Assembly (NCBI GenBank): GCA_963720575.1
Contig: CAVRGA010000002.1
Location: 5,149,209 to 5,213,208, forward strand
Length of the DNA stretch: 64,000 nt
From: an uncultured Actinomycetota bacterium
GTDB taxonomy: Bacteria > Actinomycetota > Actinomycetes > Streptosporangiales > Streptosporangiaceae
Direction: 5' to 3'
Shown here one piece after another: positions 4,564 to 44,440 of the stretch. The position numbers and the translations under genes were made by a program. The notes beneath the pieces were generated by a model. The model saw nothing but the letters and a program-made list of their open reading frames with translations. It did not search any database and was not told the DNA's origin. Position 1 is the first letter of the stretch, and each line of letters opens with the position of its first letter.

Positions 4564-5829
4564 TCAGGCTCCGGCGATGCCGGCTGACCTTGGCCGCAGC
4601 GCGAGCGGCACCCGCGCGTAACCGCGCACGACCTGATGTGGCCGGCGGACCGGCTGGCCGGCCACGTCGATCGAGCCGCACCTCGAAATCAGCTGCTCGA
4701 ATACGGCGGCGCCTTGCGCTCTGGCGAGCAGGACGCCGAGGCAGTGATGGGCACCGCCGCCGAAGCTGAGATGCGGATTAGGCCGCCTGGTCAGGTCAAG
4801 CCGGTCTGGCTCGCGGAACTGCGACGCGTCCCGGTTTGCCGACCCCAGCATGAGCAGGACGATCCTGCCGGGGCGGAGCACGCGCTCGCCGATCCCGACT
4901 GGCTGCGTGGTCACCCTCGTGACCCACTGGAGCGGCGCGTCGTACCTCAGCACCTCCTCGGCCGCCGCGGCCACGAGCGACGGGTCGGCGGCCAGCCTGG
5001 CGCGCTGATCCGGGTGCTGAGCGAGCGCCAGGCAGCCGCCGGCGATCAGGTGCATGGTCGTCTCGAAACCCGCGAAGAGCAGGAACGTCAGGTTGTCGAG
5101 TAGCTCATCCTCGGTAAAGCGATCGCCATCAGGCTGCGGCGCGATCGCTCGCGAGATCACGTCGTCGCCCGGCGTTTTCGCCCGCTCGCGCATCAGGTCG
5201 CGCAGGTAGGCCTTGAGCCAGCTCGCCTCGCGTTCCCCGTTGCCCTGCTCCGCATTGGTAAACGGGATCAAGATGATCGCCCGGCCGAGGTCGGCTGCCA
5301 CCGAGGCGACCTGCGCGCTGTCCGCCGCCGGAATGCCGAGCAGGTCGCACACGACGCGAAGCTGAAGCGGCAGCGCGAGGTCGCTGACGATCTCGGTCTC
5401 GGCCCGGTCAAGCGCGCTCGTGACGAGTTCGTCCGTCGTCTGGCGGATGACCGTTCGCATCCTGCGGACCAGGGGCGGATTGAGCACGCGGGACATCAGG
5501 CCGCGCAGCCTCGGGTGCTGCGGCGGGTCGAGCGCGGACAGCAGGTTGGGAAGCTCGGCGTTCGGCCGGGTGGCGGCGAGCAACCGCGCGCCCAGATCGC
5601 CTTGCCGCGCGGGCAAGCGGGGTGGCCGCATGCCGCCCGGCCTGCCGTGTCCGAGCCTCGGGTCGCGCAGCAGCGCGGATACCTCGGCGTACCTGGTCAC
5701 GCCCCAGGTGCCGGGCCCGCATCGGCAGAGCGGGCCGGCCTGCCGCAGGCTGGCGTAGGCCGGATAGGGGTCTTCGGGAAAGGCGGGGCTCAAGATGTTG
5801 AACTGCGGAGGGAGGGCTGCGGTCGTCAT
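4564..5829 (-). CDS. Cytochrome P450.
   Basis: 421 aa. Heme-binding loop FGGGAHHCLG. EXXR-type helix K (EEVLRYD). AGFETT I-helix motif. Confidence 0.85.
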   Translation of the reverse strand: MTTAALPPQFNILSPAFPEDPYPAYASLRQAGPLCRCGPGTWGVTRYAEVSALLRDPRLGHGRPGGMRPPRLPARQGDLGARLLAATRPNAELPNLLSALDPPQHPRLRGLMSRVLNPPLVRRMRTVIRQTTDELVTSALDRAETEIVSDLALPLQLRVVCDLLGIPAADSAQVASVAADLGRAIILIPFTNAEQGNGEREASWLKAYLRDLMRERAKTPGDDVISRAIAPQPDGDRFTEDELLDNLTFLLFAGFETTMHLIAGGCLALAQHPDQRARLAADPSLVAAAAEEVLRYDAPLQWVTRVTTQPVGIGERVLRPGRIVLLMLGSANRDASQFREPDRLDLTRRPNPHLSFGGGAHHCLGVLLARAQGAAVFEQLISRCGSIDVAGQPVRRPHQVVRGYARVPLALRPRSAGIAGA

Positions 5830-5844
5830 GCCTGCCTGACTAGG

Positions 5845-7047
5845 TCACTTGGGATGAACCGACATGGGGACACTGGCATGCGCGCGAACCGCGCCGCCGG
5901 CCACGCGGGCAGGTGAGCCGTTCCATTCACAGCTCGCCAGGCGGCGCGCCAGGCTGGCGAAAACCGTCCTGGCCTCGAGCCGGGCCAAGGCCGCGCCGAG
6001 GCAGAAGTGAGGTCCGCCCCCGAAGCTCACGTGCGGGTTCGGCCGCCGGCCGATCTCAAGCTGCCAAGCCCGGGCGAACTGACGTTCGTCACGATTGGCC
6101 GAGCCGATGAGCAGGAGCACCATGCGTCCCGCCCGAATCGTCCGGCCGCCTATTTCCACAGGCTCGAGCGCGACCCGGTACCGGCTCTGGATCGGGGCAT
6201 CGAGCCGCAGGAACTCCTCCACCGCCGCCGGGGCCAGACCGGGATCAGCCAGCAGCCGTGCCAGCTCGGCTGGATGGTCGAGCAGGGCGGCGCAGCCCGT
6301 GGCGATGAGGCTCGTAGTCGTCTCGAAGCCGGCGAAGAACAGGAAGACGATGTTGTCGACGATCTCCTCGAGCGTCAGTCCTTCGCCGGCCTCGGGAGCG
6401 GCGAGGCGCGAGAGCAGGTCGTCGCGTGGCGCCAGGCGGCGCTCGGCGAGCTGGCCGGCTATGTAGGTCCTGAGCCAGCTGACAGCCGCGTCGGCCGCGG
6501 CCTGGGCGGCGGGCTCGCCCGTCGCGGCGACCGCCTTGCCGAGATCAGCCGCCCTGCGGCGAACTTCGTCGCGGTCAGCGGGGGGGATCCCGATCAGCTG
6601 GCAGATCACCGCGACTGGCAGCGGCGTGGCGAGGTCGGCCACGACCTCGAGGCGTCCTGCTTCGAGCCCGGGCGCGAGCAGCGAGTCGGCCAGCGCGGCA
6701 ATCGCGGGCCCGATGCGGCGCACCGCACCTGGCGTGAATCCCTGGCCGACCAGCTTGCGGATCCGCCCGTGAGCCGGGTGGTCGCGATACAGCATGATGC
6801 GCCTGGCGAACTCGCCGGCCGCGCCGGTGCCAGCGGACAGCCGGTGATAGAGATCAGGCAGCTGGCTGCCAAGACGCTGGTCGTTCAGCAGGGCGGTGAC
6901 GTCAGCGTGCCTGCTCGCCACCCACTGCCCTGGACCGCCCCGGCACAGCGCCCCGGCCCTGCGCAGCCGCTCGTAGTCCGGATAGGGATCGGCCCCTGAC
7001 GCGCTATCGCGCGGATCGAACCGATATGGCAGGAGCCCGCTGTTCAC
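5845..7047 (-). CDS. Cytochrome P450.
   Basis: 400 aa. FGGGPHFCLG heme loop, AGFETTT I-helix, EEFLRLD. Paralogous to the adjacent P450. Confidence 0.85.
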   Translation of the reverse strand: MNSGLLPYRFDPRDSASGADPYPDYERLRRAGALCRGGPGQWVASRHADVTALLNDQRLGSQLPDLYHRLSAGTGAAGEFARRIMLYRDHPAHGRIRKLVGQGFTPGAVRRIGPAIAALADSLLAPGLEAGRLEVVADLATPLPVAVICQLIGIPPADRDEVRRRAADLGKAVAATGEPAAQAAADAAVSWLRTYIAGQLAERRLAPRDDLLSRLAAPEAGEGLTLEEIVDNIVFLFFAGFETTTSLIATGCAALLDHPAELARLLADPGLAPAAVEEFLRLDAPIQSRYRVALEPVEIGGRTIRAGRMVLLLIGSANRDERQFARAWQLEIGRRPNPHVSFGGGPHFCLGAALARLEARTVFASLARRLASCEWNGSPARVAGGAVRAHASVPMSVHPK

Positions 7048-7126: not shown

Positions 7127-8224
7127 ATGACATTAGAGGGTCAGCTCATGACCAGCGCCGATATACACGAAGCGAAGTCGCGGGAGCTTGATGAGCTGAC
7201 CGAAAATATCGAGCGACTGCGGCGGCTAGCCGATTACAGTAGCGCTCTTGCGCTGCGTGCGGCTTGTTCTCTGGGTATAGCTGACTATCTTGCCGACGGT
7301 CCCCTCGCGGTCACTGAATTGGCGGCGGCGAGCGCCACCTCGGCTCCGGTGCTGCGCAGGATTCTGCACGCTCTCGCGGCGCATGGAGTATTCGAGGAGA
7401 TCGCACCTGACAGTTACGCGCTGGGCAGCCTGGGCGACCTGCTGCGCCGTGACCATCCGCTGTCGATGCACGACGCCTACGAACTCTGGCCGCTGCACAT
7501 CAGGGCCTGGAGCGCGTTCGAGTTCAGCGTCCGGACCGGGGCGGCGGCGTTCGAGCACGTGCACGGCGTCGCCCATCGGCAGTATCGCGCCAGCCACCTC
7601 GACGAAGACGCGCGGATGGACCGGGCCCATCGCGCCGCCACGAACGCTGACCTGCTGACGCTGACCCGCGTCTACGACTGGTCTGCGGGGGTCCGGGTCG
7701 TCGTCGACGTCGGCGGCGGTACCGGCGCCTTCCTGGCCGGCTTGCTGACGAGGTACAGGCAACTTCGCGGCGTGCTCTTCGACCTGCCCACGATGGTGAG
7801 CAGGTCGGGCGAGGTGCTCGACGGCTCGCCGGCAGCTGACCGCATCGAGATCGCGCCGGGGGATTTCTTCGCCAGCGTGCCGCCCGGCGGGGATCTCTAC
7901 GTACTCAAGGCGGTACTCGGCGGCTGGCCGGACGAGTCGGGCGTGCTCATCTTGCGTGCCGTCCGCAAGGCGATGGGGGCCGGAAGCCGCCTGCTGATCA
8001 TCGAGCCGATCTTGCAGCACGACGCGCGGTTCACGATCGGCAATATGGTGCACCTTCAGACACTGGTGCTCTACGGCGGCCCGGAACGCGCCATGCAGGA
8101 CTACGAGCGCCTCGCCGCCGAAGCCGGGCTGCGGCTCAGCCGGGTGATCCCGCGCGCGACGCTGTCCATCATGGAGTTCACGCTGGCTGACCGGCGGGCT
8201 CAGGCCGGCAGCGAGGCGACCTGA
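7127..8224 (+). CDS. Class I SAM-dependent O-methyltransferase (COMT-like, with dimerisation domain).
   Basis: 365 aa. Motif I VVDVGGGTGAF. LFDLP...PGDFF motifs typical of plant-like O-methyltransferases. Confidence 0.8.
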   Translation: MTLEGQLMTSADIHEAKSRELDELTENIERLRRLADYSSALALRAACSLGIADYLADGPLAVTELAAASATSAPVLRRILHALAAHGVFEEIAPDSYALGSLGDLLRRDHPLSMHDAYELWPLHIRAWSAFEFSVRTGAAAFEHVHGVAHRQYRASHLDEDARMDRAHRAATNADLLTLTRVYDWSAGVRVVVDVGGGTGAFLAGLLTRYRQLRGVLFDLPTMVSRSGEVLDGSPAADRIEIAPGDFFASVPPGGDLYVLKAVLGGWPDESGVLILRAVRKAMGAGSRLLIIEPILQHDARFTIGNMVHLQTLVLYGGPERAMQDYERLAAEAGLRLSRVIPRATLSIMEFTLADRRAQAGSEAT

Positions 8225-9489
8225 GCAGCCGGGTCGCTGGCCGCCGCCGCGGCGAGCGCGACGTACTTCGCGAGAAAAGCGCGTGCCCACCGCGGGTCAA
8301 CCCGGTCCTGGCTGAAGAAGAGCTTGACCGCGAACCCTGAGCCGCGCGGCATGAGAGCGAGCTCGAAGTCGAAGCGGCCGCTGACGTCAGGCACCATTCC
8401 GGTGAATTCGAGATCGCCTGCGGTAATGCTGGCCTCGAGAGGCTGGCTGAGCATCTGGAACACGACGTCATCAAGCCGCAGTTTCCCTGGCCTGGTGGTC
8501 ACCTGGGTCAGCAGGTGAAAGGGCAGTTCCTGGTGCGCGGTCGCTCCGATCACGACGCGCCTGGCGACCGCGACGGTGTCAGCGAAGGTCGCGTCGGCTG
8601 GCAGCCGCGCGCGGAGCACCAGCATGTTGGCGATGAAACCGACGGTGTTCTGCACCTCGGGCTTCGCGCGATTCGCGAACAGCGATGACACGGAAAGGTC
8701 CGGCTGGCTGGTGGCCCGGCAGAGCATGGCGTAATAGACCGCGAGCATGACGGCGAAGATCGTGGTCCCGCTGACCCTGGCAAGTTCCCTGAGCTTCGCG
8801 CCGACCTCATCGGGTATCTGCGACTGCTCGGCTCGTCGTCGCGCTCCGACGGCTCGTGCCTGGCCGATCGGGAGGTCGAGCGGCCCGGCGCCGGTTAGCT
8901 GAGCGCGCCAGTACTCCTGGTGCCTGAGGAAGTCAGGCCGCCTGAACTGCCGGGCCTGCCAGAGCGCGAAGTGCCGGTACTGCCAGGCGGGCGGTGGCAG
9001 CACCTGGCCGTCCTCCGCCGCGGCCGAGTAACAGAGCGCCACCTCCCGGAGCAGGACATCGCAGGACCAGGTGTCAGTGATCAGGTGATGCATGTTGACG
9101 CACAGCACGTGCTCCGTGCTGCTCGCCTGCCAGAGGTGAACGCGCACCGGCCAGATGACCGGGTCTACCCTCGTCCCGAGCTCGACCGTCAGCGCCTCAC
9201 CGACCGCGCCCGGTCCGTCGAGGCTGACGCGGGAAAGCGGCAGCGGCCCCGGATCGTGTACGACCTGGGTGAGGCCGCGGCCCGCGCCGGTGAAGGTCGT
9301 GCGCAGCGACTCGTGGCGGGCAGCGAGCTTGCCGACGGCGACAGTGAGCCTGGCCAGGTCGAGCGGCCCAGTCAGCCGGCACACCATAGGGCAGTTCAGA
9401 GTCCCGCCCTGGCCGTGGTGCCGGTCGAGGAACCACAGCAGCCGCTGACCGGCAGAAGCCGGGACCTGTCTCATTGCGCGAACCGCCAA
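8200..9489 (-). CDS. Free-standing NRPS condensation (C) domain protein.
   Basis: 429 aa. Catalytic HHxxxD core HHLITDTWS. N-terminal LLWFLDR motif. Confidence 0.8.
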   Translation of the reverse strand: MAVRAMRQVPASAGQRLLWFLDRHHGQGGTLNCPMVCRLTGPLDLARLTVAVGKLAARHESLRTTFTGAGRGLTQVVHDPGPLPLSRVSLDGPGAVGEALTVELGTRVDPVIWPVRVHLWQASSTEHVLCVNMHHLITDTWSCDVLLREVALCYSAAAEDGQVLPPPAWQYRHFALWQARQFRRPDFLRHQEYWRAQLTGAGPLDLPIGQARAVGARRRAEQSQIPDEVGAKLRELARVSGTTIFAVMLAVYYAMLCRATSQPDLSVSSLFANRAKPEVQNTVGFIANMLVLRARLPADATFADTVAVARRVVIGATAHQELPFHLLTQVTTRPGKLRLDDVVFQMLSQPLEASITAGDLEFTGMVPDVSGRFDFELALMPRGSGFAVKLFFSQDRVDPRWARAFLAKYVALAAAAASDPAAQVASLPA

Positions 9490-9697: not shown

Positions 9698-12600
9698 ATG
9701 ACAAGTGAGTCATCCGCGGGAAACCCGCAGGAGACGCCAGCCGAGACGGGGCTGTCGCTCGATGCGATCCGCGCAGCGGTAGCAGAAGTGCTCGGTACCG
9801 TGCCCGACGGGATAGCCGAAGACGACGACCTGATCGGCTACGGCATCGACTCGATTCGGATCATGCAGCTGCTCAACCGGTGGCGCCGCGCTGGCGTCGT
9901 GCTCAGATTCGCTGACCTGGTCGAGAAGCCGAGCCTGAGCGCCTGGTCCGTGCTCGCGGCACAGCGGCAGGCCGCCGTGCCGCGATCACAGCCCAGGCTG
10001 GCCGTGGACGAGTCGGCGCCGTTCGCGCTGGCACCCATGCAGCAGGCGTACTGGATCGGGCGGGCCGATGGTCAGATACTGGGCGGCGTCGGTGCTCATT
10101 TCTATGCCGAATTCGACGGGCCCGGCACTGATCCTGGCAGGCTTGACGAGGCGGCGCGGAAGCTGATCAGCCGGCATGGCATGCTCCGCGCGCGCTTTCT
10201 TGACGACGGCACGCAGCAGATCCGCCCTGAAGGCGCGTGGCAAGGTGTCACGGTGCACGATCTCCGCGGCGCTCCCGCGCGGGAAGCCGAGGCTCTGCGG
10301 CGGCGCTTGTCGCATCATAAGCTCGCCGTGGACCGGGGCCAGGCGCTCGACATCCAGCTTTCTTATCTGCCTGACGGCACTACCAGGACCCATGTCAACA
10401 TCGACATGCTGGTCAGTGACGCGCTGAGCTATCAGATCATCCTGGGTGAGCTCGCGCACTTCTACCTGCGGCCAGCCGCGGAGTTGCCGCCGATCGGGTA
10501 CAGCTTTCCGCGATATCTCGCCGAGCAGCGGCTCAGCCGGTCAGCCGAAGCGTCCTGCGCCAGGGACTACTGGAATGCCGCACTGGACGCGATGCCCGGC
10601 GCTCCGCAGCTGCCGCTCGCCGCCGAGCCAGAGCGGCTGGTCCGCGCGGGCATCAGCCGGCGTCACGACTGGCTGCCGGCGACCACGAAACGGCGGCTCG
10701 ATGAACGCGCCCGCGCCAGCGGCGTGACCTTGCCTGTCGCCTTCATGACGGCGTTCGCTGAGGTCATCGGGGCGTGGAGCGCTGAGCACCGGCTGCTGCT
10801 CAACGTCCCGATTTTCGATCGCGAAGAACTGCATCCGGACGTCGCGCGATTGGTCGGCGACTTCACCAACCTGGTGGTCGTCGCGGTAGATGTCACTGCT
10901 GACCTGCCGTTCGCCCGGCAGGCGCATCGCGTCCAGCGCCAGCTTCAAGGTGACCTGGCCCACGCGCAGTACTCAGGGGTAGAGGTGCTTCGCGACCTGG
11001 CACGCGAGCGGCCGGGTGACTGGATGATGGCGCCAGTGGTGTTCACGAGCGCGATCGGCATGGGGGAACTGTTCGGCGGCGCCGTCAGGCACTGCCTGGG
11101 TACCCCGGGATTCAGCACATCGGAAACACCTCAGGTATGGATCGATCACCAGGTCATCGAGCACGACGGCGGCCTGCTGCTCAACTGGGACGTTATCGAG
11201 GAGCTATTCCCCGACGGCGTGATAGACGCCATGTTCCGCGCTTATGCCGGCCTGATCGGCTGGATGGCGAGCAGCGACTGGAACGAGCCGGCGCCGTCGC
11301 TGCTTCCTGCTGGGCAGGCGCAGGTCAGGGCCACCGTCAATGCTACCGGTGAGCCGCATCGCCCCCGGCTGCTGCACGACGGGTTCTTCGAACGGGCGGC
11401 GAGCCAGCCGCTCACGCCCGCCTTGCTGTGGGGTGACGATCAGGTCATCACTTATGCCGAGCTCGCTGAGCGCGTGCTTGGCGTGGCCGGCCAGCTCGTC
11501 GCTGACGGACTGGCGCCCGGAGAGATCGTCGGCGTCTCGATCCCGAAGGGCCCCGAGCAGGTCATCGCCGTGCTGGCCGTGCTCGCGGCAGGCGGCAGCT
11601 ACCTGCCCCTCGGCGCTGACCTGCCTGAATTTCGCAAGCTGCGCATTTGCGAGCGGGCCGGGGTCAGGTCGGTGCTGACCGGGCTTCGCCAGGGCGCCGC
11701 GCCGCTGACCGGACCGGTCGCCGCTTCCCCGGATGACCTCGCGTACCTGATCTATACGTCAGGGTCGACCGGCGAGCCGAAGGGAGTGGAGATCACTCAT
11801 CGCGCGGCGATGAACACGATTGACGAGATCAACGACAGGTACCAGGTCGGTCCCGGCGACCGGGTTCTCGCGATCTCGGCGCTCGACTTCGACCTGTCCG
11901 TCTACGACATCTTCGGCTTGCTGTCGGCAGGCGGCGCCGTAGTCCTGGTGGAGGAGCGGGACAGGCGGGAAGCCAGGCGGTGGGCCGGCCTCATGCGGCG
12001 TCATCGCGTGACGGTCTGGGATTCGGTTCCTGCGCTGCTTGAGATGATGCTGGTCACCGGCGCCGCCGCTGACCTGAGGCTGGTGCTGGTGTCCGGTGAC
12101 CGGATCGGCCTCGACCTGCCGGCCCAGGTGCACGCCCAGGCGCGGCAGTGCGAGTTCGTCGCGCTCGGCGGTGCTACGGAAGCATCGATCTGGTCGAACG
12201 CCATCGACGTCAGCTCAGTCCCTGACCATTGGACCTCGATACCTTACGGCTACCCGCTGCGCGGGCAGAAGTATCGCGTCGTTGACGGCAGGGGACGCGA
12301 TTGCCCCGACTTCGTGCCCGGCGAGCTCTGGATCGGCGGCGCGGGCGTGGCCCGCGGCTACCGCGCGGGCGACGAGCTTGCCGCGGGCCGGTTCGCCTGG
12401 CATGAAGGCGAGCGCTATTACCGCACCGGTGACATCGGGCGCTACTGGCCAGACGGGACCCTGGAGTTCATCGGCAGGGCGGACTTCCAGGTGAAGATCC
12501 GCGGTCACCGGATCGAGCTCGGCGAGATCGAGAAGACCGCCGCCGCCCATCAGAAGGTCTCCGTGGCCGCGGCGACCAGGATCGTCCACGAGCGCATCGG

Positions 12601-13048
12601 CCTCGCGGTAGTCGCCGCCGACGACCTGGACGTCGTCGGCCTGCGCGGCTTCCTCGCCGCGCGGCTGCCGGGCTACATGGTGCCGGACGCGCTGGTGGTG
12701 CTCAGCGAGCTGCCGCTGAGCGCGAACGGCAAGATCGACAGGAAGTCGCTGGCCGGCCTCATCGAGAGGTGTGCCGAGAGCGCCGCGACCGAGAAGCCGG
12801 GCGGCCCCGTCGAGACCCGCCTCGCGGCGTTGTGGTCCGAGATACTCCCGGTCGCCGGGCCCGGCAGGAACGAGAGCTTCCTGGCGCTGGGCGGCGACAG
12901 CCTGGCCGCCACGCGCCTGGTCGAGGAGGTCAGGAAGCGTTTCGACGTGGAGGTGACGCTCAGGCAGCTGTTCGCCGGCCCGACCATAGCTGACCTGGCC
13001 GCGCTGATCGAGGCCAGCGCCGCGGGCACCGAGGAGGGCGAGCTGTGA
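9698..13048 (+). CDS. NRPS, PchE-like: aryl carrier protein, heterocyclisation domain, Cys-type A domain, PCP.
   Basis: 1116 aa. N-terminal carrier GYGIDSIR. Cy domain with DxxxxD (DMLVSDALS). A-domain motifs LAYLIYTSGSTGEPKGV and FDLSVYD (D-L-x-x-Y start of the Cys specificity code). GELWIGG, YRTGD, IELGEIE. C-terminal PCP LGGDSLAATRL. Confidence 0.9.
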   Translation: MTSESSAGNPQETPAETGLSLDAIRAAVAEVLGTVPDGIAEDDDLIGYGIDSIRIMQLLNRWRRAGVVLRFADLVEKPSLSAWSVLAAQRQAAVPRSQPRLAVDESAPFALAPMQQAYWIGRADGQILGGVGAHFYAEFDGPGTDPGRLDEAARKLISRHGMLRARFLDDGTQQIRPEGAWQGVTVHDLRGAPAREAEALRRRLSHHKLAVDRGQALDIQLSYLPDGTTRTHVNIDMLVSDALSYQIILGELAHFYLRPAAELPPIGYSFPRYLAEQRLSRSAEASCARDYWNAALDAMPGAPQLPLAAEPERLVRAGISRRHDWLPATTKRRLDERARASGVTLPVAFMTAFAEVIGAWSAEHRLLLNVPIFDREELHPDVARLVGDFTNLVVVAVDVTADLPFARQAHRVQRQLQGDLAHAQYSGVEVLRDLARERPGDWMMAPVVFTSAIGMGELFGGAVRHCLGTPGFSTSETPQVWIDHQVIEHDGGLLLNWDVIEELFPDGVIDAMFRAYAGLIGWMASSDWNEPAPSLLPAGQAQVRATVNATGEPHRPRLLHDGFFERAASQPLTPALLWGDDQVITYAELAERVLGVAGQLVADGLAPGEIVGVSIPKGPEQVIAVLAVLAAGGSYLPLGADLPEFRKLRICERAGVRSVLTGLRQGAAPLTGPVAASPDDLAYLIYTSGSTGEPKGVEITHRAAMNTIDEINDRYQVGPGDRVLAISALDFDLSVYDIFGLLSAGGAVVLVEERDRREARRWAGLMRRHRVTVWDSVPALLEMMLVTGAAADLRLVLVSGDRIGLDLPAQVHAQARQCEFVALGGATEASIWSNAIDVSSVPDHWTSIPYGYPLRGQKYRVVDGRGRDCPDFVPGELWIGGAGVARGYRAGDELAAGRFAWHEGERYYRTGDIGRYWPDGTLEFIGRADFQVKIRGHRIELGEIEKTAAAHQKVSVAAATRIVHERIGLAVVAADDLDVVGLRGFLAARLPGYMVPDALVVLSELPLSANGKIDRKSLAGLIERCAESAATEKPGGPVETRLAALWSEILPVAGPGRNESFLALGGDSLAATRLVEEVRKRFDVEVTLRQLFAGPTIADLAALIEASAAGTEEGEL

Positions 13049-16000
13049 CCGAGACGGATACCGGGCGGGCGCTGGTAGAGCAATTGCGCGAGGCCGGGGT
13101 CCGGCTGTGGGCAGACTCAGGCAAGCTCCGTTACCGGGCCGCGAAGGGAGTCATGACGCAGGAGTGGCAGGCCACCCTGCGGGCGCACAAGACCGCCGTG
13201 CTCGAGTACCTGAGCCAGCCCGACGACCTCATCGCCGCCAGCCGTCCGTCGGTGACCAGCTCAGATCCCTTCCCGCTGACCGACGTCCAGACGGCATACC
13301 TGCTCGGCCGGAGCGACGCGTTCCGCTATGGCGGGGTGGCCTGCCACGGCTACGGTGAGCTGGTCATCGGCGCGCTTGACCGGGACCGGCTGCAGGCCGC
13401 CTGGCACCAGCTCATCGCTCGTCACGAGATGCTGCGGACCGTCATCAGCGCGGCTGGCACTCAGCGCGTCCTCGCCGAGGTTCCCGAATTCGAGATCGAG
13501 GTGATCGACCTGGCGGCGGCTGGCTCCAGCATCGACGCCGTCAGGGACGAGATGAGTCATCGCGTCTACCCGACCGACGCCTGGCCCATGTTCGACCTGA
13601 AGATCAGCCGTGGCGCCACCATGGACGTGCTGCATTTCTCGATCGACTTCCTGATCGTGGACTTCGTCAGCACTCAGATCCTGCTTGACGAGCTGGTCAG
13701 GCTCTACCGCGGGCAGCAGTCGCTGCCCGAGCTGGCGCTGTCCTTCCGCGGCTATCTGGCCGAGGCGGAAATGCGGCAGGACAGCGATCGGCACGAGCGC
13801 GATCGCGAATACTGGCTCGATGCGGCGCAGTCCCTGCCGCCCGCACCTGACCTGCCGGTGCTCGAGCGCGCGCCGGGCAGGCGGTTTCGCCGGCTCGCGG
13901 GGTCCCTGCCCCCTGAGCAGTGGCGGGCGCTCCGGGCAGCCGCGGGTGAGCGGGGGATCACGGCGTCGGTCGCCGTGCTCGCTGCCTACGCCGAAGTGAT
14001 CAGCCGCTGGAGCCGCGACCAGCGGCTCACGCTGAACCTGACACTGCAGAACCGGCTGCCGCTGCACCCGCACGCCGGCCGGGTCGTCGGTGACTTCACC
14101 GCCGTTGAGCTGCTGGCTGTCGAACCAGCCAGCACGCTGGCCGGCCGGGCGAGCGCCATGCAAGAGCGGCTGTGGCAGGACCTTGATCACCGGCTCTGCT
14201 CCGGGCTCGACGTGATGCGCGAGGTGTCCAGGCGGCACGGGCCGGCGCCGGCCTGTTCCCTGTCGTCTTTACCAGCGCCGTGGGCGCCGACCCTGACGCG
14301 GATCGCCGCGAGTATGGGCTGAGCGACCTGGTCTACGGGATCACCCAGACTCCCCAGGTCTGGATCGACTGCCAGGTCGCCGAGGGCAACGGCGCCCTGG
14401 CCTTCAACTGGGACGTCAGGGAGGGGGTGTTCCCTGACGGCCTCGTTGGCGAGATGTTCGGTGCCTTCTCCCGCTTGCTCAGCCGGATGACGGCGCAGGA
14501 CGGGGTGTGGGACTCCGCCGAGCCCGTGCCGGTGCCGGCCAGCCAGCTTCAGCGCCGCGAGCTGATCAACTCCACTGCGGCGCCGTTGCCCGACAGCCTG
14601 CTGCACGAAGGCGTGGTGGCGCAGGCGCTGCGGGCTCCAGGCCGGCTGGCCGTCGCTGACCCTGCCGGGTCGCTGACCTATGGGGAGCTGCTCGGCCTGG
14701 CTCTTTCCCTGGCCGGCGAGCTCCGTGACGAGGGCCCTGTCGTCGCGGTGCTGATGGACTCCGGCAGGTTCCAGTTCGTCGCGGTTCTCGGGATCCTGCT
14801 CGCTGGGCTGGCCTACCTGCCGCTGGACGTCGACCAGCCCGCGGCCCGCCGCGAGCGCATTATGCGCGACGCCGGGGTGCGCTGCGCGGTCACCCGCGGA
14901 GACGCGGAGCTGCCCGCGGAAGTGCGCCGAGCGGACATCAGGACGATCGGTGCCTCGCCGCTCCCCGTCGGACCGCTGCCGCCGATGGCGGCTCCGGGTG
15001 ATCTGGCCTACGTCATCTACACCTCAGGATCGACCGGGGCTCCGAAAGGCGTGGCGATCAGCCATCGGAGCGCGGTCAACACGATCGCCGACATCAACCA
15101 GCGCTTCGCGATAACGGAGCGCGACCGGGTACTGGGGCTGGCCGCGCTGGGGTTCGACCTGTCGGTGTACGACCTGTTCGGGCCGCCCGCCCGGGGAGCG
15201 GCGCTCATCTTGCCCTCGGCCAGCCGGCACGCGGATCCGTCGCACTGGGCCGAGCTCATCGCGGAGTACCAGATCAGCTTGTGGAATTCTGTTCCCGCTC
15301 ATCTGCAGATGCTCAGCGACTACCTCGGCAGCGCCGGCGATGAGGTGCCATCGCTCCGGCTGGCGCTGCTGTCTGGCGACTGGATCCCGGTCCGGCTGCC
15401 CGACCAGGTCCGGGCTCAGGTGCCTGGCCTGCGGGTCGTCAGCCTCGGCGGCGCGACCGAGGCCGCGATCTGGTCCATCTGGCATCCCATCGAGGAAGTT
15501 GAGCCGGATTGGCACAGCATTCCCTACGGAAAGCCACTGGCGAATCAGTCATTTCACGTGCTCGACCACGACCTGCGGCCGTGCCCCGACTGGGTGCCTG
15601 GCGAACTCTTCATCGGCGGGACCGGGCTGGCGATCGGCTACCTCGGCGATGAGGCCAAGACAGCTGAGCGGTTCATCGTTCACCAGGCGCTCGGCAGGCT
15701 CTACCGGACCGGCGACCTCGGACGGTACTTGCCAGACGGCTCCATAGAGTTCCTCGGCCGGGAGGACCGCCAGGTCAAGCTTCGCGGCCACCGGATAGAG
15801 CTGGCCGAGGTCGAGGAGGCGGTGCGCGCGCATGAGCAAGTCGGGGCCGCGGTGGTGCTCGCAGACGGCCAGCGGGGTCTCGCGGCCTTCGTGGAACCGG
15901 CCAGGCGGCCAGCGGCGAGGGCCGGAGCCGGGCAGCCTGACCCGGTCGCCTGGCCGTCGCCGCCGCGGCCAGAACTCGCGGAGGCCGCCGCCACCGCCGG

Positions 16001-18026
16001 CGTCACCGACGGCGTCGACGTGCCGCGGTTCCGCGCTCATGCGAGAGCGCTCGACCAGGCATCGCTGCTGTCCATGGGACACGCGCTCGCGGCCGTCCGC
16101 CTGGCAGCCGGCGAGGTGCCCGGGCGGTATCGCAGCCTGATGCGCCGGTGGGAGCGCGCGATCGAGTCGGCCGGGCTGGCAGGAACGGGGCTGGCAAGCA
16201 CGGGGCCGACAGGCACGGAGGCGACGGCCGCGGCGGATGCCTGGCGGCGCGTCCGCGAGCGATGCGCCGATGACCCGGGGCTGATCTCCTATTTCGAGAC
16301 CTCAGCCCGCCAGCTGCCCGCCCAGCTGCTCGGCGCGACGGATCACCTGACACTGCTTTTCCCCGAGGGACAGCTGTCCGTATGCGAGGCGGTGTGGTCC
16401 GGGCCGTTAGCCGTCCGGTGGGCTAACCGCGCGGCCTCTGAACTGGTCCGCCAGCTGGCACCCGGCCGCGTGCTCGAGGTGGGCCTGGGCTCCGGCGGGA
16501 CCACTGCCGAGCTGCTCGCGGCGCTGCCTGAGGTCTCGTGCACGCTGACCGACCTTTCGCCGCTGTTCGTAACGGCCGCGCGAGACCGCTTCACGGCGCG
16601 GCCAGGACTGCGCTTCGCCGTGTTCGACATCACGCAGGACTACCGGGCTCAGGGGTTCCTGCCCAGCTCCTACGACGTGATCGTCGCTGGTGACGTCCTG
16701 CATGCCTGCTGCGACGTCCCCGACGTGCTCGCCAGGCTCGCCGAGCTGCTCGTGCCCGGCGGATGGCTGATCCTCACCGAGGTCACCAGGGAGCATCTGC
16801 CTTTCATGATCTCGCTGGAATTCCTGCTGCAGATCGACTTCGCTGACCAGCGCCGGGACGGTGACGACTGGTTCTTTACCGAGCCCCAGTGGCGCCAGCT
16901 GCTCGCCGAGGCGGGCGCCGGCACGGTACTGAGCCTGCCAGCCGACAGCCACGGGATCGTCGCCGAGTCTGGCCTGCGGGTCTTCGCTGCCCAGGTCAAG
17001 ACCGACCGGGTGCCTGTGTCCGAGTCCGGCCTGCGCGCGCATCTCGCGCAGCGGCTGCCTGACTACATGCTGCCCGCGCATGTCCAGGTCGTCGACGCGC
17101 TGCCGCTAAGCCAGAACGGCAAGATCGACCAGCGGGTTCTGGCGAGCTGGCTACCGCCGCTTCGCACCGGAGAAGCCGCGGTGCAGGTGAGCGCAAGCCA
17201 GCTCGAGGCGACCATGGCGACGCTGTGGGCAGAAGTGCTCGGACTGCCAGGCGTCGGCCTTGACCAGGGCTTTGTCGCTCTTGGCGGTGACTCGCTGCTC
17301 GCCGCGCGGCTGGCTGGCCGTATCCGCGAGGAGCTGTCACTGGCCACGCCTTTCGACACCGTGCTGCAGCAGGTTCTGGAAGGGCCGACCGTGGCCGGGC
17401 TCGCCGCCTGGATCGTCGCGCACGAGCCGCCCCGCGGGCTGACGGATGAGCCTGGCGACGCGGACGCGGGCGGGCAGCCAGCCCTGGCGATCAGGAACCT
17501 CGGCGGCAGCAGGACCGGCGAGGCGTGCGTGCTCATCCACGACGGCAGCGGCACCATCGCCTGCTATCAGCCGTACCTGGCCGCGCTCAGCGAGGACGGG
17601 CGGCTAGGCCAGCTGGCGGGACTTGAACTGGCGGACCCGTCCGGTTACCTCGCGCTCGATCCCGAGGTCGTCATCGGGCAGCTCGCCGACGACTGCGCGG
17701 ACGCGCTGCTCGATGCCGGATACCTCAGCGTGCGCATCGCCGGGCAAGGCCAGGGCGCCATTATCGCGATGGAGGTCGCCAGGCGCCTGGTCGAGGCAGG
17801 CGCCGACGTTCACCGGCTCGTCCTCGTCGGGCCCGCTGTCACCGGTCAGGACGACAGCCCGCTGTCCGCGCACCTTGCCGAGGCGCTCGGGCGCTGGCAG
17901 CCGCTCGCTTACTCGGGCGACCTCACCTTGGCCGGCGCTGGCGACGAGCGGGCCGCCGCGGCCTGCAGGCAGGCATGCCTTGGCACGGTCAGCCTGGCCG
18001 CGCACCTGGTCGAGGCGCTGCGATGA
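13045..18026 (+). CDS. NRPS, PchF-like: Cy domain, Cys-type A domain with embedded methyltransferase, PCP, TE-like domain. Apparent frame break near 14230-14280.
   Basis: ORF 13045-14322 is Cy N-terminal (DFLIVDFVS). ORF 14280-18026 continues the Cy in another frame (FPVVFTSAVGADPD…QVWIDCQ). A domain (YVIYTSGSTGAPKGV; FDLSVYD). MT insert between A8 and A10 (RVLEVGLGSGG). A10 PLSQNGKIDQ. PCP LGGDSLLAARL. TE-like domain with GQGQG where GxSxG is expected. GTGA overlap with the upstream NRPS. Confidence 0.8.
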
Positions 18027-19087
18027 CACGCCGCCTCAAGGTGGTGGTATGCGGCACCGCGTTCGGCCAGGTGTACCTGGAAGGCCTTCGCCACCTGGAG
18101 GCGAAATACGAGCTCGTCGGCGTGCATGCCAGGGGCAGCGCGCGATCGGAGGCCTGCGCCGAGCACTACGGTGTCCCGCTGCTCACCGACCTCGACGACG
18201 TGGACGCCGACGTCGCCTGTGTCATCGTCAGGGGCGGCCTGCTCGGGGGAGCAGGCAGCGACATGGCCCTGCGCCTGATGGCGCGTGGCGTCCACGTGCT
18301 GCAGGAGCATCCGCTGCATCACGACGAGCTTGCCGCGTGCCTGGCTCAGGCTCGCAAGAGCGGCGTGATCTACCAGCTCAACACCTTCTACGCCGACCTG
18401 CCCGCTGTTCGGCGGTTCCTCGCGGCCGCGCACGAGCTGACCGTCGAGCGGCCGCCCGTGTGCATCGACGCGATGACCGGCTTTCAGGTCGCCTACGCAC
18501 TGCTCGACATCATCGGCGCGGTGCTCGGGCGGCTGCGGCCCTATAGCTTCAGCGCGGCTCCGCACGACGGGACCTCGAGGCCGTTCCGCAGCCTCGACGG
18601 CCGGATCGGCGGAGTACCGGTCACGATCAGGATCGAGAACAGGATCGACCCGGCCGATCCCGACAGCCGGACGCGAATGCTGCACCGGATCTCTGTGGGC
18701 ACCGATAGCGGCGATCTCACCCTGGTCACCTCGGTCGGCCCGATCGTCTGGTCAGCGCGGCCGGGCATCCCGGGCCAGGTGCGGGACGCCGGTGCCGCCC
18801 CGCTGTTCGCTGGCCGGCCGCTCAGCGGCGGCGGCGCCTCGGCGAGGGTGATCGGGCCAGCGACAGCTCCCGATCAGGAGCAGGTGTTCGGCTCGCTCTG
18901 GCCCAGGACCGCCGCCAGGGCACTGGACCGGCTGCACGATGCTGTACTGACCCGGGCAGATCCGCTGCGACGCGGGCAGTATTACCTGGCGCTATGTCAA
19001 ATGTGGCAGGGCATCGCAGCGCAGCTAGGTCCGCCCGAACTCATGACTAGCCAGCCGCGCCTACTTACTGACAAGTCGCGGAACTAA
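18023..19087 (+). CDS. Thiazolinyl imide reductase (PchG/Irp3/YbtU family, Gfo/Idh/MocA-like).
   Basis: Starts MTRRLKVVVCGTAFGQVYLEGL with ATGA overlap to the NRPS stop. Length about 355 aa and position directly after the TE match pchG and ybtU. Confidence 0.7.
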   Translation: MTRRLKVVVCGTAFGQVYLEGLRHLEAKYELVGVHARGSARSEACAEHYGVPLLTDLDDVDADVACVIVRGGLLGGAGSDMALRLMARGVHVLQEHPLHHDELAACLAQARKSGVIYQLNTFYADLPAVRRFLAAAHELTVERPPVCIDAMTGFQVAYALLDIIGAVLGRLRPYSFSAAPHDGTSRPFRSLDGRIGGVPVTIRIENRIDPADPDSRTRMLHRISVGTDSGDLTLVTSVGPIVWSARPGIPGQVRDAGAAPLFAGRPLSGGGASARVIGPATAPDQEQVFGSLWPRTAARALDRLHDAVLTRADPLRRGQYYLALCQMWQGIAAQLGPPELMTSQPRLLTDKSRN

Positions 19088-19170: not shown

Positions 19171-19926
19171 GTGCCTGGTCCAGTGACAGTGATCACCGGT
19201 GCGGGATCTGGCTTAGGCCGGGCGCTTGCGGTGAATCTCGCGAGGCAGGATCATCGCCTGGTGCTAGTTGGCCGGAGAAAGGAGCGGCTAGCTGAAGTCC
19301 GGAATTCCTGCCTGGTCGCGGGAACGGCCCGAGAAGACATACTGCTGGTGCCGGCGGATATAACCGCGCGGTCAGCTCCGACGCAGATTATCGATGAGAC
19401 AATGAACGCGTACGGTCAGGTCGACGCGCTTATAAACAATGCCGGCCAGGCTCGATTCGCACTGCTCGAAAATGCACTCGCCGAAGACATAGAATGCATG
19501 ATAGCGACACATCTGACAGCACCGGCTGCCCTCATTCGCGAGGCTACGCCGGCGTTGCGAGCCGCCAAGGGGATCGTCGTGAACATTGGCTCCATAGGTG
19601 GCGTGCTTGCGCTGCCCGGACGCGCTCTGTATGGCGCGACCAAAGCGGCACTGCATCATTTCACTCGCTCGCTAGCGCGTGAACTGGCTCCGGATATCCG
19701 CGTCAACGCTGTCGTGCCAGGAGCGATTGACACCGAGATGTACGACCATCTTGGTCTTTCGGTGGCTGAGGTCGCTGCCCTGCGCGACGAAATGATCCTC
19801 ACCACCCCGCTTGGCCGCATGGGCGCACCGGAGGACGTCGTGCCCTGGATCGACCTGATGCTCAAGCCCGCCGGGCACTGGATGACCGGCAGCCTGGTCG
19901 TGATAGACGGCGGGCGTTCCTGCTGA
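19171..19926 (+). CDS. Short-chain dehydrogenase/reductase (SDR).
   Basis: 251 aa. TGAGSGLGRA cofactor motif. YGATKAA catalytic Y-x3-K. Good RBS (ggaagaaagg) upstream of the GTG start. Confidence 0.85.
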   Translation: MPGPVTVITGAGSGLGRALAVNLARQDHRLVLVGRRKERLAEVRNSCLVAGTAREDILLVPADITARSAPTQIIDETMNAYGQVDALINNAGQARFALLENALAEDIECMIATHLTAPAALIREATPALRAAKGIVVNIGSIGGVLALPGRALYGATKAALHHFTRSLARELAPDIRVNAVVPGAIDTEMYDHLGLSVAEVAALRDEMILTTPLGRMGAPEDVVPWIDLMLKPAGHWMTGSLVVIDGGRSC

Positions 19927-19962: not shown

Positions 19963-20850
19963 ATGACGAGCACGCAGGAGAAAGACACCGTCTACTCAAG
20001 TCCGAAGTTCCGTGACATCGATGTCGGCGCCATTATGCGAGACGGTCATCCTGACGTAGCCGACGGTGATGAGTTCATCATTTCTGTGGTAAGGGAACTG
20101 CATGCCAAGGCGAATCGCCGGCTGCGTATCATCGATGTCGGGTCTGGCTCCGGCGATCTGAGTCTCATGCTGGCAAGGCAACTGCCTGAAAGCGAGATCG
20201 TCGCCAACGACATAGAGCCCAATCCGGTCGCTCAGGCAACAGCTAAGCTCGCCGATTTCCCTCATGCCTCGGTATACGACCAGCCGTTTGAGAGCTGGGA
20301 TGGCACCGCCGACGCGGTTATCTCGTGGGGCTCGCATCATCACCTTAGCCATGACTATCTCTCACACGTCAAGCAGGTCCTGGCTCCTGGCGGGGTGCTG
20401 ATCATAGGCGACGAGTTCTGCCCGGAATACCTGACCAACGCGGACCGAGAGCGGCTGGCGGCGGCCAGTGAGATAATCATCGAAGACGGCTACATCTTCG
20501 ATAATGATGCCGACGCGACCGCTTTTCGCGACAACCGCGTGATGCCGCAGTGGACCGCGGGGCTGGAAGACGCCAGGCGCAAGGCGCTCTGGACCTGGTA
20601 CAAGTTTGTGGGCGACTATGCGGTCAGCAAAGGACACTGGCCGGTCCTGATCGCCGAGCTGGGCATTGCACGAGACGATCTGGTCACCGAATTCGACGAG
20701 GAGCACAAGACTTCGCCGTATCTGCTGGAGCGTGAATTGGAGTTGAATGGCTTCGAGGTAGCGCGGAAAAAAGTGATCGGTGACCGTGAGCCCGCGCTGC
20801 TGAGCTTCGTCGTGTACGTATGCCGAGTGGGACCGGAGAATGCCGGATGA
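19963..20850 (+). CDS. Class I SAM-dependent methyltransferase.
   Basis: 295 aa. Motif I IIDVGSGSGDLS. Acidic residue at end of beta-2 (VANDIEP). Confidence 0.75.
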   Translation: MTSTQEKDTVYSSPKFRDIDVGAIMRDGHPDVADGDEFIISVVRELHAKANRRLRIIDVGSGSGDLSLMLARQLPESEIVANDIEPNPVAQATAKLADFPHASVYDQPFESWDGTADAVISWGSHHHLSHDYLSHVKQVLAPGGVLIIGDEFCPEYLTNADRERLAAASEIIIEDGYIFDNDADATAFRDNRVMPQWTAGLEDARRKALWTWYKFVGDYAVSKGHWPVLIAELGIARDDLVTEFDEEHKTSPYLLERELELNGFEVARKKVIGDREPALLSFVVYVCRVGPENAG

Positions 20851-22031
20851 CATACTTGCCCGCCATGACGCGGACAGTGCGCCCGGTTGACGGCGTACGA
20901 GCCTCCTCGTTGCATGCCATCCACCGGCTCATGGAGAGCAGGCAGGGAGAGGCATTCCCTTTGCATGTCGGCGAGCCCTACCTGCGCATGCCCGAGGTGG
21001 CGCTTGATGCGTACGTCCGCGCTCTGCGCGACGGCAAGACCAGATACACCGACGCGCCAGGGATGCTGGCCTTGCGGGAGGCGCTTGCCGCGCGCCTGGC
21101 CGGGAACGGCGCTCCTGCTGTCGAGCGGTTGTTCGTCACCCCTGGCTCGTGCCAGGCCATCGCCGCGGTGCTGCAGTCGGTGGCGATTCCCGGCGGGATC
21201 GCCGTGCTGCCCCGCGTGCACTGGCCCATGCACCTGCAGCAGGTGGTGCTGGCTGGCCTGACACCTCGGTTCGTCGACATGTCCGGTCACCGCGCCGAGG
21301 TGACCGGCGCGCTCGAAGAGCTAGCCGGGCTAGGTGCGTGCGTGATCATCGTGAACTCGCCAGCCAATCCGGCGGGTACCGTACTCGACCGCGAACTGGT
21401 CGGCGCGATCCACGACTGGGCGAGCCGCCGCGGAATCTGGGTGATCAGCGACGAGGCGTACGAGGACTTCACCTACGAGGGGTCAGCGCCCGCGACGGCC
21501 GAGTTCGACCTGCGGCTGCCTGCTCCCGAGCGCGTGGTGTTCTCCGTGCACACCTTTTCCAAGGGCTACTCGATGACTGGCTGCCGCCTCGGCTATGTCG
21601 CCGCGCCGACGAAGGAGGCCGCTGACCGCCTGACCAGGATCCAGGAGGCGACGCTGGTGTCGCCGAGCACGCCGGTGCAGTATGCGGGCCTCGCGGCGCT
21701 GACCGACCAGCACTGCCTGCGCGAGCACAGCCAGTACGTCAGGATGACCAGGGACGCGATGCTCGCCGAAGCGTGGCTCGCTGGCCAGGTGCGGGCGTCG
21801 CCAGCCGGCGGCTGGTACATCCTCATCGATCTGGCCAGGTACACCGCTGACACCGACTGGCTGTGCCGCGAGCTGATCGAGCAGACAGGAGTCGCGGTCG
21901 CTCCCGGCGAGGATTTCTTCCCGCCCGGCGACCTGGCGGGACGTAGCATGGTCCGGCTGACGATGTGTCATGAACGCGAGATGACGTTGGAGGGAATCCA
22001 CAGGCTCCGCGAGTTTCTCGAGGCCCGATGA
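20847..22031 (+). CDS. PLP-dependent aminotransferase class I/II.
   Basis: About 395 aa from MTYLPAM, with ATGA overlap to the upstream stop. Aspartate-aminotransferase-family fold (NSPANPAGTV, SKGYSMTGCRLGY PLP-Lys region). Confidence 0.8.
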   Translation: MTYLPAMTRTVRPVDGVRASSLHAIHRLMESRQGEAFPLHVGEPYLRMPEVALDAYVRALRDGKTRYTDAPGMLALREALAARLAGNGAPAVERLFVTPGSCQAIAAVLQSVAIPGGIAVLPRVHWPMHLQQVVLAGLTPRFVDMSGHRAEVTGALEELAGLGACVIIVNSPANPAGTVLDRELVGAIHDWASRRGIWVISDEAYEDFTYEGSAPATAEFDLRLPAPERVVFSVHTFSKGYSMTGCRLGYVAAPTKEAADRLTRIQEATLVSPSTPVQYAGLAALTDQHCLREHSQYVRMTRDAMLAEAWLAGQVRASPAGGWYILIDLARYTADTDWLCRELIEQTGVAVAPGEDFFPPGDLAGRSMVRLTMCHEREMTLEGIHRLREFLEAR

Positions 22032-22706
22032 CCGGTCAGATACGCCAGCTGGCGGCGACGTACGCGGGCTACATGCGGCTGGACGGCCTGTTGGCATTGC
22101 AGCATCCGCGTACGCCCGCCATGGATGCCGCGACATGGGCGTCCGAGCACTTTTTCATCGTCTGCCATCAGGCCAGCGAGCTATGGGCGACCCAGATTCT
22201 CATCGACATCAGCGGGGCTGCGCGAAGCGCCGAAGCCGGCGACTGGGAGTTCGCGGTCGTCGCGCTCACCCGCGCATGCGCCCTGGTAGATCTGGTCAGG
22301 CAGAGCCTGACCTCGCTGCTCTGCATGCCGGTCGCGGACTTCATGCGCTTTCGCGGAGCGCTCGAAGGTGCCAGCGCGGCGGAGTCACGGCAGTTCGCCG
22401 CGCTGCTCCGGTGCGCGCGCGAGCCTGCGGTGCAGTCGCTCAGGGCCAGCCTGGCCACCGCGTTGCCCGCGACGGCGCCCGGCGGCAAGCACGGGTGCGG
22501 GTCATGCCCGGCACGCCGAGTGCGCGGCCGCCCGTGCGCTGGAGTCGCTGCTCGACGAGGTGCGCGACTGGCGGCGAATGCACGCGGAGATCGCCCGCCA
22601 TTTCATCGCCGACCTGCCGGGTACCGGTGGCACGAGCGGTGTCAGCTATCTGGTGCGTGATGACGACGACCTCGGGTGGCACGAAGGTCAGCAAAGAGAT
22701 CATTAA
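22028..22706 (+). CDS. Tryptophan 2,3-dioxygenase-like protein. Apparent frame break near 22480-22510.
   Basis: Frame A 22028-: EHFFIVCHQASELWATQILID and FMRFRGALEGASAAESRQFAALL, TDO signatures. Frame B to 22706: DWRRMHAEIARHFIADLPGTGGTSGVSYL, TDO C-terminal GTGGSSG motif. ATGA overlap with the aminotransferase stop. Confidence 0.6.
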
Positions 22707-23903: not shown

Positions 23904-23982
23904 CGTGCTTTCCTCGCAAGTAGGATCTGAGAAGATTTCCGACTGGCCATCGGCTGCTCTGGGGACGCGGCATGATGGCCGA

Positions 23983-24420
23983 ATGGATTACGAGCCGGTA
24001 CTCAGCCAGCTTAATCTGGCCGTACGCGACATGGGCGCGACAGCTGCGTTCTACCGCAGGCTGGGCCTGCCGATCGAGGCGAACGAGGACACGGAGCACG
24101 TCGCCTGCACTCTGCCCAACGGCATGATTATCGAGTGGGATCAGACCGACTTCGTGACCGTCTGGGACTCGAGTTCGACGGGCGAGACGGGCGGCACGAC
24201 CGTGCTGTGCTTCTCGCTGCCATCCCGGGACGCGGTCAATGACGTTTACGGCGACCTGATCGCTGGCGGGTACCATGGACGGCAGCAGCCTTACGACGCG
24301 TTCTGGGGCGCGCGCTACGCCATCGTCGCAGATCCTGATGGCAACCCTGTCGGGTTGATGAGCCCGATCGACCCTGACTTCAAATACTGGCCGCCTGAGA
24401 CGCCCCCGTCAGGACCATGA
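23983..24420 (+). CDS. VOC/glyoxalase-family protein.
   Basis: About 145 aa from MDYEPVLSQLNLAVRDMGATAAFYRRLGL. C-terminal DPDGNPVGL glyoxalase-fold motif. Confidence 0.65.
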   Translation: MDYEPVLSQLNLAVRDMGATAAFYRRLGLPIEANEDTEHVACTLPNGMIIEWDQTDFVTVWDSSSTGETGGTTVLCFSLPSRDAVNDVYGDLIAGGYHGRQQPYDAFWGARYAIVADPDGNPVGLMSPIDPDFKYWPPETPPSGP

Positions 24421-44429: not shown

Positions 44430-44440
44430 CGGATCGGCCG

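Follow-up and report, generated by a model that had tools for sequence, protein, structure and literature searches.

In the biosynthesis of pyochelin and of thiazostatin/watasemycin, a thioesterase (TE) domain is taken to hydrolyse the thioester, and the separate PchC protein is taken to edit (PMC5427693). We here describe a related gene cluster in a 64,000-nucleotide stretch of DNA (hereafter the window; 67.7% G+C) from an uncultured Actinomycetota bacterium of the Streptosporangiaceae (GenBank assembly GCA_963720575.1, contig CAVRGA010000002.1, positions 5,149,209 to 5,213,208 of the forward strand). Its PchF-like non-ribosomal peptide synthetase (NRPS), termed NRPS2, ends in a TE-like domain that has lost the nucleophile, the canonical aspartate, and the lid. 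The cluster resembles both PchF/PchC/PchG of pyochelin and Sven0517 of thiazostatin/watasemycin in the Cy-A(MT)-PCP-TE architecture (MT, methyltransferase; PCP, peptidyl carrier protein), the PchE-like ArCP-Cy-A-PCP partner, and the trans-acting thiazolinyl reductase gene directly downstream (PMC5427693). However, the TE of those systems hydrolyses, whereas the features needed for this are gone here. Moreover, neither a PchC-like type II TE nor a salicylate synthase or aryl-AMP ligase was seen in the window, and there are additional genes for a free-standing condensation (C) protein, an AsnB enzyme, two P450s, an O-methyltransferase, and an SDR-MT-aminotransferase-TDO-like cassette. The parts of the synthetase that matter for what follows are these:

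13045 to 18026, forward strand: NRPS2, PchF-like, with TubC-type docking, Cy, A with embedded MT, PCP, and the TE-like domain (Pfam)
17217 to 17414, forward strand: PCP of NRPS2 (PF00550), with the GGDSL motif and its Ser intact
17484 to 18023, forward strand: the TE-like domain, of thioesterase fold but degenerate and without a lid, which closes NRPS2 at its C-terminus (partial PF00975 match, AlphaFold, Foldseek)

The open reading frame (ORF) that carries this domain (14280-18026, forward strand) ends with CVLIHDGSGT...VRIAGQGQGAIIAMEVARRL. The Pfam thioesterase profile (PF00975) scored 30.6 bits against a gathering cut-off of 26.4, with only model positions 5-105 of 226 covered. In a phmmer comparison with PDB chains, the segment RIAGQGQGAIIAMEVA...LVLVG aligned to RLGGWSFGGVVALEMA...LLLVD of the NocB TE, and the elbow was also aligned to FGHSMGATLAFELA of BorB. 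Here, GQGQG (nucleotides 17742-17756, forward strand) takes the place of GWSFG in NocB and GHSMG in BorB, with Gly (codon GGC, 17748-17750) at the position of the catalytic Ser. Likewise, LVLVG stands opposite LLLVD of NocB, with Gly (17829-17831, forward strand) at the canonical Asp site. Thus, both the Ser and the canonical Asp have been replaced by Gly.

An AlphaFold model of the last 272 residues, covering the PCP and the TE-like domain and based on 42 sequences, has a mean pLDDT (predicted local distance difference test score) of 91.7, with about 95 over the TE-like stretch. It shows the PCP as four helices, then a linker that is disordered, and finally an alpha/beta domain of compact shape. 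In this model, the first Gly lies at the junction of a strand (residues 174-180) and a helix (182-196), which is the nucleophile elbow, and the second Gly comes directly after the strand 200-207. The best Foldseek matches are PCP-TE didomains, namely EntF (PDB ID: 3tej), SulM (PDB ID: 8w2d), and ObiF1, and these are followed by the Vlm2 TE, the NocB TE, and type II TEs. Taken together, the Pfam score and the outcomes of fold prediction and fold search rule out a chance resemblance to a TE.

About 100 residues are gone between beta6 and the conserved YAGD strand when compared with long homologues, and this missing segment is the lid; the His motif GDHF is also gone. In fact, the elbow and the YxGD strand are 53 residues apart in the TE-like domain versus about 150 in intact relatives. 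A His (nucleotides 18003-18005, forward strand) is placed in the model between the last strand and the last helix, at the topological place of the catalytic His, and is probably a vestige. It is kept in one close orthologue (P0002, as GH) and lost in another (P0003, as DD), and a GDH motif is present in none of the listed short-form relatives. The Cys of an ACLG motif (17976-17978; Cys257 of the PCP-TE construct) is invariant in every homologue aligned, short or long (42 and 18 sequences), and its role is probably structural. The thioesterase fold is therefore kept, whereas of the five catalytic features that define it, four are missing or in doubt. With the nucleophile, Asp, and lid lost, hydrolytic release in cis is very unlikely, and we consider with high confidence that the domain is non-hydrolytic.

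These results agree in substance with a sequence-only reading of the locus, which had proposed a TE-like C-terminal domain with GQGQG, Gly in place of the catalytic Ser, and a normal hydrolytic activity that was unlikely. The peptide is present as quoted, and Pfam, AlphaFold, and Foldseek concur on the domain. Moreover, Gly stays at the Ser position when the placement of the nucleophile is checked against PDB TE chains (NocB and BorB) and by the location of the elbow in the model. The doubt about hydrolysis is strengthened by the second Gly at the Asp site, the deleted lid, and a His that is unconserved in the closest orthologues. Its positions needed adjustment, as the codon named for the nucleophile (17746-17748) was 2 nucleotides off. 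The span given for the domain (17300-18026) also began too early, since 17300-17430 is still PCP and the fold begins at about 17484.

The exact NRPS2 protein is on record (P0001), and its closest orthologues are encoded by uninterrupted genes. These read GERQG (P0002, an intact orthologue of 1658 residues, 64% identical, on a syntenic contig, L001) and GAREG (P0003) at the elbow. With the TE-like domain alone as query, a word-index homologue search gave no match, a full HMMER scan of 1.84 billion representatives gave 158 relatives, and a profile search of genome contigs with a narrow alignment gave six loci. We then tallied the nucleophile position in 243 related TE-like domains. In forms with a long tail, it is Cys in 106, Ser in 25, Gly in 18, and another residue in about 20, and in short-tail forms it is Gly in 53 of 73. 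Such a preference for Gly would fit a strained backbone at the nucleophile elbow.

For a view of when the loss occurred, we derived a neighbour-joining tree of 106 actinobacterial PchF homologues from their A-MT core, with the TE left out. Those without an intact nucleophile/His pair (64 of the 106) are grouped together, and about three state changes explain the distribution of degenerate and intact TEs. The loss is therefore old and clade-wide, and a stepwise trimming came later, with the lid length in the degenerate group ranging from about 150 down to 35 residues. The intact TEs of actinobacterial PchF homologues (P0017-P0114; L004-L008) have a Cys nucleophile in nearly all cases, in GYCMG or GYCLG together with GDHF, and they have Ser, not Asp, at the canonical site after beta6. 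A PchF-like tail with GCGFG and no GDH is also found in the betaproteobacterium Massilia sp. BJB1822 (L003, NZ_JABWEB010000045.1), followed by a reductase and a type II TE, and the degenerate form is thus not confined to Actinobacteria.

Among 16 related loci compared, ten have a dead TE, and those with an intact one (GYC[ML]G and GDHF) are L004-L008. The elbows of the dead-TE loci read as follows:

window: GQGQG
L001: GERQG
L002: GAREG
L003: GCGFG
L009: GAGVG
L010: GAGAG
L011: GAGFG
L014: GAGPA
L015: GKGTG
L016: GRGAAG

Despite its lost active site, the TE-like domain is conserved. We used per-domain identity as the measure of selection, given that synonymous sites are saturated at 54-64% protein identity. 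The TE-like domain shares 54% identity with its counterpart in P0002. The catalytic domains reach 61-75% (A core, 75%), whereas the PCP-TE linker next to the domain has 21%. The G+C content at third codon positions (GC3) of the domain stays at 0.83-0.93 in frame. Several positions do not vary among the short forms, namely the leading Gly of the elbow, an ExA in the next helix, and the YxGD and CLG motifs. Purifying selection acts on the domain, and this implies a non-catalytic role, which would probably be structural or lie in PCP docking or partner recruitment.

Two other accounts of the active site itself bear on this picture. A base-calling error in a GxSxG motif would need only one A-to-G change to make AGC into GGC, and the assembly does have errors. 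However, the errors seen in it are indels, not substitutions; moreover, the Asp site and the lid have been lost too, and every close relative is likewise without Ser or Cys at the nucleophile position. On these comparative grounds (the elbows of the orthologues and the clade-wide loss), we dismissed an error at the GGC codon and give it practically no credence. It is also highly improbable that the domain still releases the chain through other residues at a non-canonical site. The candidates would be the ACLG Cys, invariant in short and long forms, and the His retained at the topological His site. Yet this Cys is at the start of the last strand, which the topology would put at the edge of the sheet away from the elbow, and its invariance extends to forms that have their own GYCMG nucleophile, so its role is probably structural. 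Similarly, the close orthologue P0003 no longer has the His, and without the lid there is no substrate chamber.

With a dead TE, the chain has to leave in trans. In the mechanism we propose, the TE-like domain would be a pseudo-thioesterase, a compact alpha/beta core after the PCP without nucleophile, Asp, or lid, and a thiazolinyl-(N-methyl)thiazolidinyl chain on the last PCP would be taken off by another protein. In this cluster the likeliest agent is the free-standing C protein, which would move this acyl chain off the PCP and onto an amine or ammonia as the nucleophile. This nucleophile may be connected with the AsnB-type amidotransferase or the aminotransferase cassette. The chain would leave as an amide (or ester), not as a free acid. 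The two genes most directly concerned are:

8200 to 9474, reverse strand: free-standing C protein (PF00668), 424 residues from the ATG at 9474 within the ORF 8200-9489
2767 to 4545, reverse strand: AsnB-type glutamine amidotransferase (Pfam)

That a stand-alone condensation ORF is present at 8200-9489 on the reverse strand, as the sequence-only reading had it, is confirmed. The protein matches PF00668 only, over nearly the full model (E-value 1.2e-60), and has the motif HHLITD. The exact protein is on record (P0271) and belongs to a family of about 56 stand-alone members of 415-473 residues, with the second His and the final Asp of HHxxxD conserved in all 56. It is syntenic in L001, L009, L010, L014, L015, and L016, and is usually divergent from the PchE-like gene. 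Among structures in the PDB, it is closest to elongation C domains, namely those of Txo1 and Txo2 (teixobactin), TycC (tyrocidine), and fuscachelin, with 130-152 bits (Txo1, 152), and its C1 motif SxGQRLLWFL presumably resembles that of DCL/LCL-type domains. The third-best match is 8z0q, described as a "special condensation domain". The teicoplanin X-domain also matches at 1e-30, and an X-domain-like, non-catalytic role, as might be suspected from this match and from the P450 neighbours, was judged less likely given the invariant HHxxxD. In some clusters, a second C paralogue is found beside genes for a stand-alone PCP, a methyltransferase, and a glyoxalase-fold protein (L009, 3195-4514 and 2742-3035; L013), which suggests that members of the C family are also able to act together with a separate carrier protein.

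The comparison of loci favours, on circumstantial grounds, a part for this protein in release. A member of the C family is found within 10 kb in seven of the eight evaluable dead-TE loci, as against neither of the two intact-TE loci whose sequence reaches 10 kb upstream. The sole evaluable dead-TE locus without a C protein (L011) has an extra PCP-TE protein instead. Moreover, in all eight of the other dead-TE loci and in all four intact loci with enough sequence, the gene right after the reductase gene encodes a PchC-like type II TE, whereas tblastn gave no match for one in the window or in the 21-kb L001 contig, even at an E-value of 10. The loss of an editing type II TE is easier to tolerate if the C protein performs the release. 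AsnB was found by tblastn only in the window and L001 among the loci. This enzyme could be a source of ammonia or could later turn a free acid into an amide, and the amide-capped, pyochelin-like product of the sequence-only reading is a guess.

One G is missing at about 14244-14245 (GG for GGG) inside the Cy domain, which splits NRPS2 into the ORFs 13045-14322 and 14280-18026; the sequence-only reading had left this frameshift unremarked. Across this break, orthologues read RRxGxxAGLFPVVFTS, and one added G restores RRHGPGAGLFPVVFTS. The break is also marked by a switch of the GC3 frame, and both halves keep a strong GC3 signal and have no stop codons. In the TDO-like gene there is a 1-nucleotide insertion near 22508-22511, seen as tblastn matches in two frames, with residues 11-160 of the L001 orthologue matching frame 3 and residues 162-213 matching frame 1. 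Because of this change of frame, the 210-residue ORF at 22028-22660 has a false C-terminus. A third frameshift is found 20 kb away, near 42.13 kb, in the LanB gene of an unrelated lanthipeptide cluster. All three single-base indels in the 64 kb are in G/C-rich sequence, and the two in the cluster, which are resolved to the base, are in short G/C runs. Together with the intact motifs and the undisturbed coding signal, this points to assembly indel errors, and decay is probably not involved.

How the chain is released has to be weighed against two further explanations. The main rival, which we regard as possible but doubtful, also holds the TE to be dead and has the chain released by plain hydrolysis in trans, by a type II TE or other enzyme encoded outside the window, or by slow spontaneous release; the C protein would then serve in tailoring, and AsnB would amidate the acid later. 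AsnB-type enzymes normally act on free carboxylates, which suits this sequence of events. Moreover, a PchC-like type II TE at every other related locus, dead or intact, makes it look like the default partner of this NRPS type, and C-family members turn up both beside a long-form PchF homologue and where no Cy-NRPS is close by. Yet neither the 64-kb window nor the orthologous 21-kb contig has a type II TE, the pairing of the degenerate TE with a free C protein in seven of eight loci is left unexplained, and PchC is known as an editing rather than a releasing enzyme (PMC5427693). A second explanation would need no release mechanism at all, since the dead TE and the frameshifts in NRPS2 and the TDO-like gene would mark a decaying, non-functional remnant. 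Two 1-nucleotide frameshifts in a 23-kb cluster are compatible with this. However, the state of the TE is common to dozens of intact orthologues and is conserved, all the other NRPS core motifs are intact, and the halves of NRPS2 show strong GC3 and no stops. Furthermore, the third frameshift in a lanthipeptide dehydratase gene 20 kb off and the placement of the indels in G/C-rich sequence or short G/C runs point to assembly error, and we consider decay improbable.

Several points also weigh against release by the C protein. The counts of loci are small, and the window shows no acceptor amine, no extra carrier protein, and no aryl-acid-activating enzyme. Elsewhere in the genome, beyond the window, there could be a gene for a type II TE or other hydrolase, and the frameshift in NRPS2 might mean that the cluster does not work at all. 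Since P450 genes often flank the C genes, a tailoring or recruiting role for the C protein is possible. The family is, moreover, not specific to dead-TE clusters; in L012 (Streptomyces xanthochromogenes) the C protein is beside an 1821-residue long-form PchF homologue, and L013 has two C-family copies and no Cy-NRPS within 10 kb. Likewise, the C protein is not a relative of VibH by descent, judging from the 17.5 bits (E-value 0.015) obtained with the VibH structure (PDB ID: 1l5a). The VibH-style release put forward in the sequence-only reading is thus favoured by the locus pairing as regards the act of release, but not as regards kinship, and the term can describe a mode of action only. All things considered, we place the whole chain of explanation, including release by the C protein, slightly short of an even chance. 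Broader still, and in our estimate doubtful, is the idea that the dead, lid-less TE is a conserved pseudoenzyme marking an undescribed release logic in more than half of the sampled actinobacterial pyochelin-type synthetases, with the chain handed to a DCL/LCL-like C protein and leaving as an amide or ester. In the present lineage, from which the editing type II TE has gone and to which an AsnB-type amidotransferase has been added, the nucleophile would then be ammonia or a cluster-made amine, and the product a carboxamide-capped and possibly non-salicylate (Trp-derived aryl) pyochelin analogue.

The cluster as a whole spans 1.6-24.4 kb of the window, as judged from Pfam matches and ORFs. Besides the genes already given, it includes:

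1595 to 2764, forward strand: flavin monooxygenase with acyl-CoA-dehydrogenase fold, group D (Pfam; best PDB relatives Rv3094c, HsaA, and XiaF)
4564 to 5829 and 5845 to 7047, reverse strand: two cytochrome P450 genes (Pfam)
7127 to 8224, forward strand: O-methyltransferase (Pfam)
9698 to 13048, forward strand: NRPS1, PchE-like, ArCP-Cy-A-PCP (Pfam; motifs DMLVSD, GIDS, and GGDS)
18023 to 19087, forward strand: thiazolinyl imine reductase, PchG/Irp3-like (PF01408 and PF21390)
19171 to 19926, forward strand: SDR (Pfam)
19963 to 20850, forward strand: class I methyltransferase (Pfam)
20820 to 22031, forward strand: class I/II aminotransferase (Pfam)
22028 to about 22700, forward strand: TDO-like gene, a short haem protein (Pfam)
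23905 to 24420, forward strand: glyoxalase-family gene (Pfam)

NRPS2 has the Cy, A(MT), and PCP domains of the PchF type, with the core motifs DFLIVD (DxxxxD of Cy), TSGSTGAPK, LEVGLGSG, and GGDSL, and a motif check found all NRPS core motifs of the cluster intact. It shares 47-51% identity with proteins named pyochelin synthetase by JGI. Its PchF-type partners are also present, these being the Irp3-like reductase (PF21390), whose start overlaps the NRPS2 stop (ATGA), and the PchE-like ArCP-Cy-A-PCP module. Another hydrolase was looked for in the cluster, and none was found. The glyoxalase-family gene is the probable right edge, and glyoxalase genes recur in related loci. The SDR-MT-aminotransferase-TDO-like cassette is kept in L001, L002, L009, and L014, and travels with many such NRPS pairs. 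By analogy with the beta-methyl-Trp/maremycin, indolmycin, and quinaldic-acid pathways, the four genes may provide a Trp-derived unit that would serve as aryl starter or as acceptor.

Elsewhere in the window, there is a second cluster, for a class I lanthipeptide, at 40569-45845 on the reverse strand:

40569 to 41639, reverse strand: LanC
41937 to 44429, reverse strand: LanB, with the elimination domain continuing in another frame to about 41640
44586 to 45845, reverse strand: PCMT-family protein methyltransferase

The last of these is reminiscent of the LanS-type enzymes of isoAsp-containing lanthipeptides. At 35287-38840 on the forward strand, a 972-residue HerA/FtsK-like ATPase is followed by a 220-residue protein with a papain-fold glutamine-deamidase toxin domain (PF15644).

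Genome-mining tools read a Cy-A-PCP-TE architecture as hydrolytic release of a free acid. If the dead-TE clade does off-load via a separate C protein, the C-termini predicted for the products of these clusters would be wrong, and the clusters may encode undescribed amide- or ester-capped thiazoline metallophores. The TE-like domain is also a clean natural pseudoenzyme inside a megasynthase, useful for the non-catalytic roles of TEs in PCP docking and partner recruitment. In addition, the frameshifts are a warning that the assembly needs polishing before gene-level conclusions are drawn.

With respect to other known systems, the C protein and VibH, the amide synthase of vibriobactin, are alike in being stand-alone C proteins with HHxxxD, and the transfer of a carrier-bound acyl group to a soluble amine is a prediction for the former. 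In contrast, the two differ in sequence, given that VibH is so much more distant than the elongation C domains. The TE-like domain can also be compared with the Cys-nucleophile TEs of SulM, ObiF1, and MacB, as its intact relatives carry GYC[ML]G and GDHF, but its own elbow has neither Cys nor Ser. Neither dead TEs in PchF homologues nor clusters of this type were described in any paper that our literature searches turned up. As a theme, the inactive TE is already known, and the main value of the present case is the clade-wide pattern, together with its bearing on the structures predicted for actinobacterial thiazoline metallophores. The pacidamycin pathway is built around free-standing C proteins. 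In 2011, Zhang, Walsh and co-workers reportedly described bond formation by its stand-alone C proteins, such as PacI, including off-loading onto an amine. PacP of this pathway is an A-T-TE0 protein whose TE-like domain has no catalytic triad (PMC8748450). In architecture, NRPS2 is alike in that a triad-less TE-like domain closes the module and a free C protein is encoded in the cluster. PacP is another type of NRPS. The dead TE described here, by contrast, characterizes a whole clade of pyochelin-type synthetases with Cy domains and is truncated as well.

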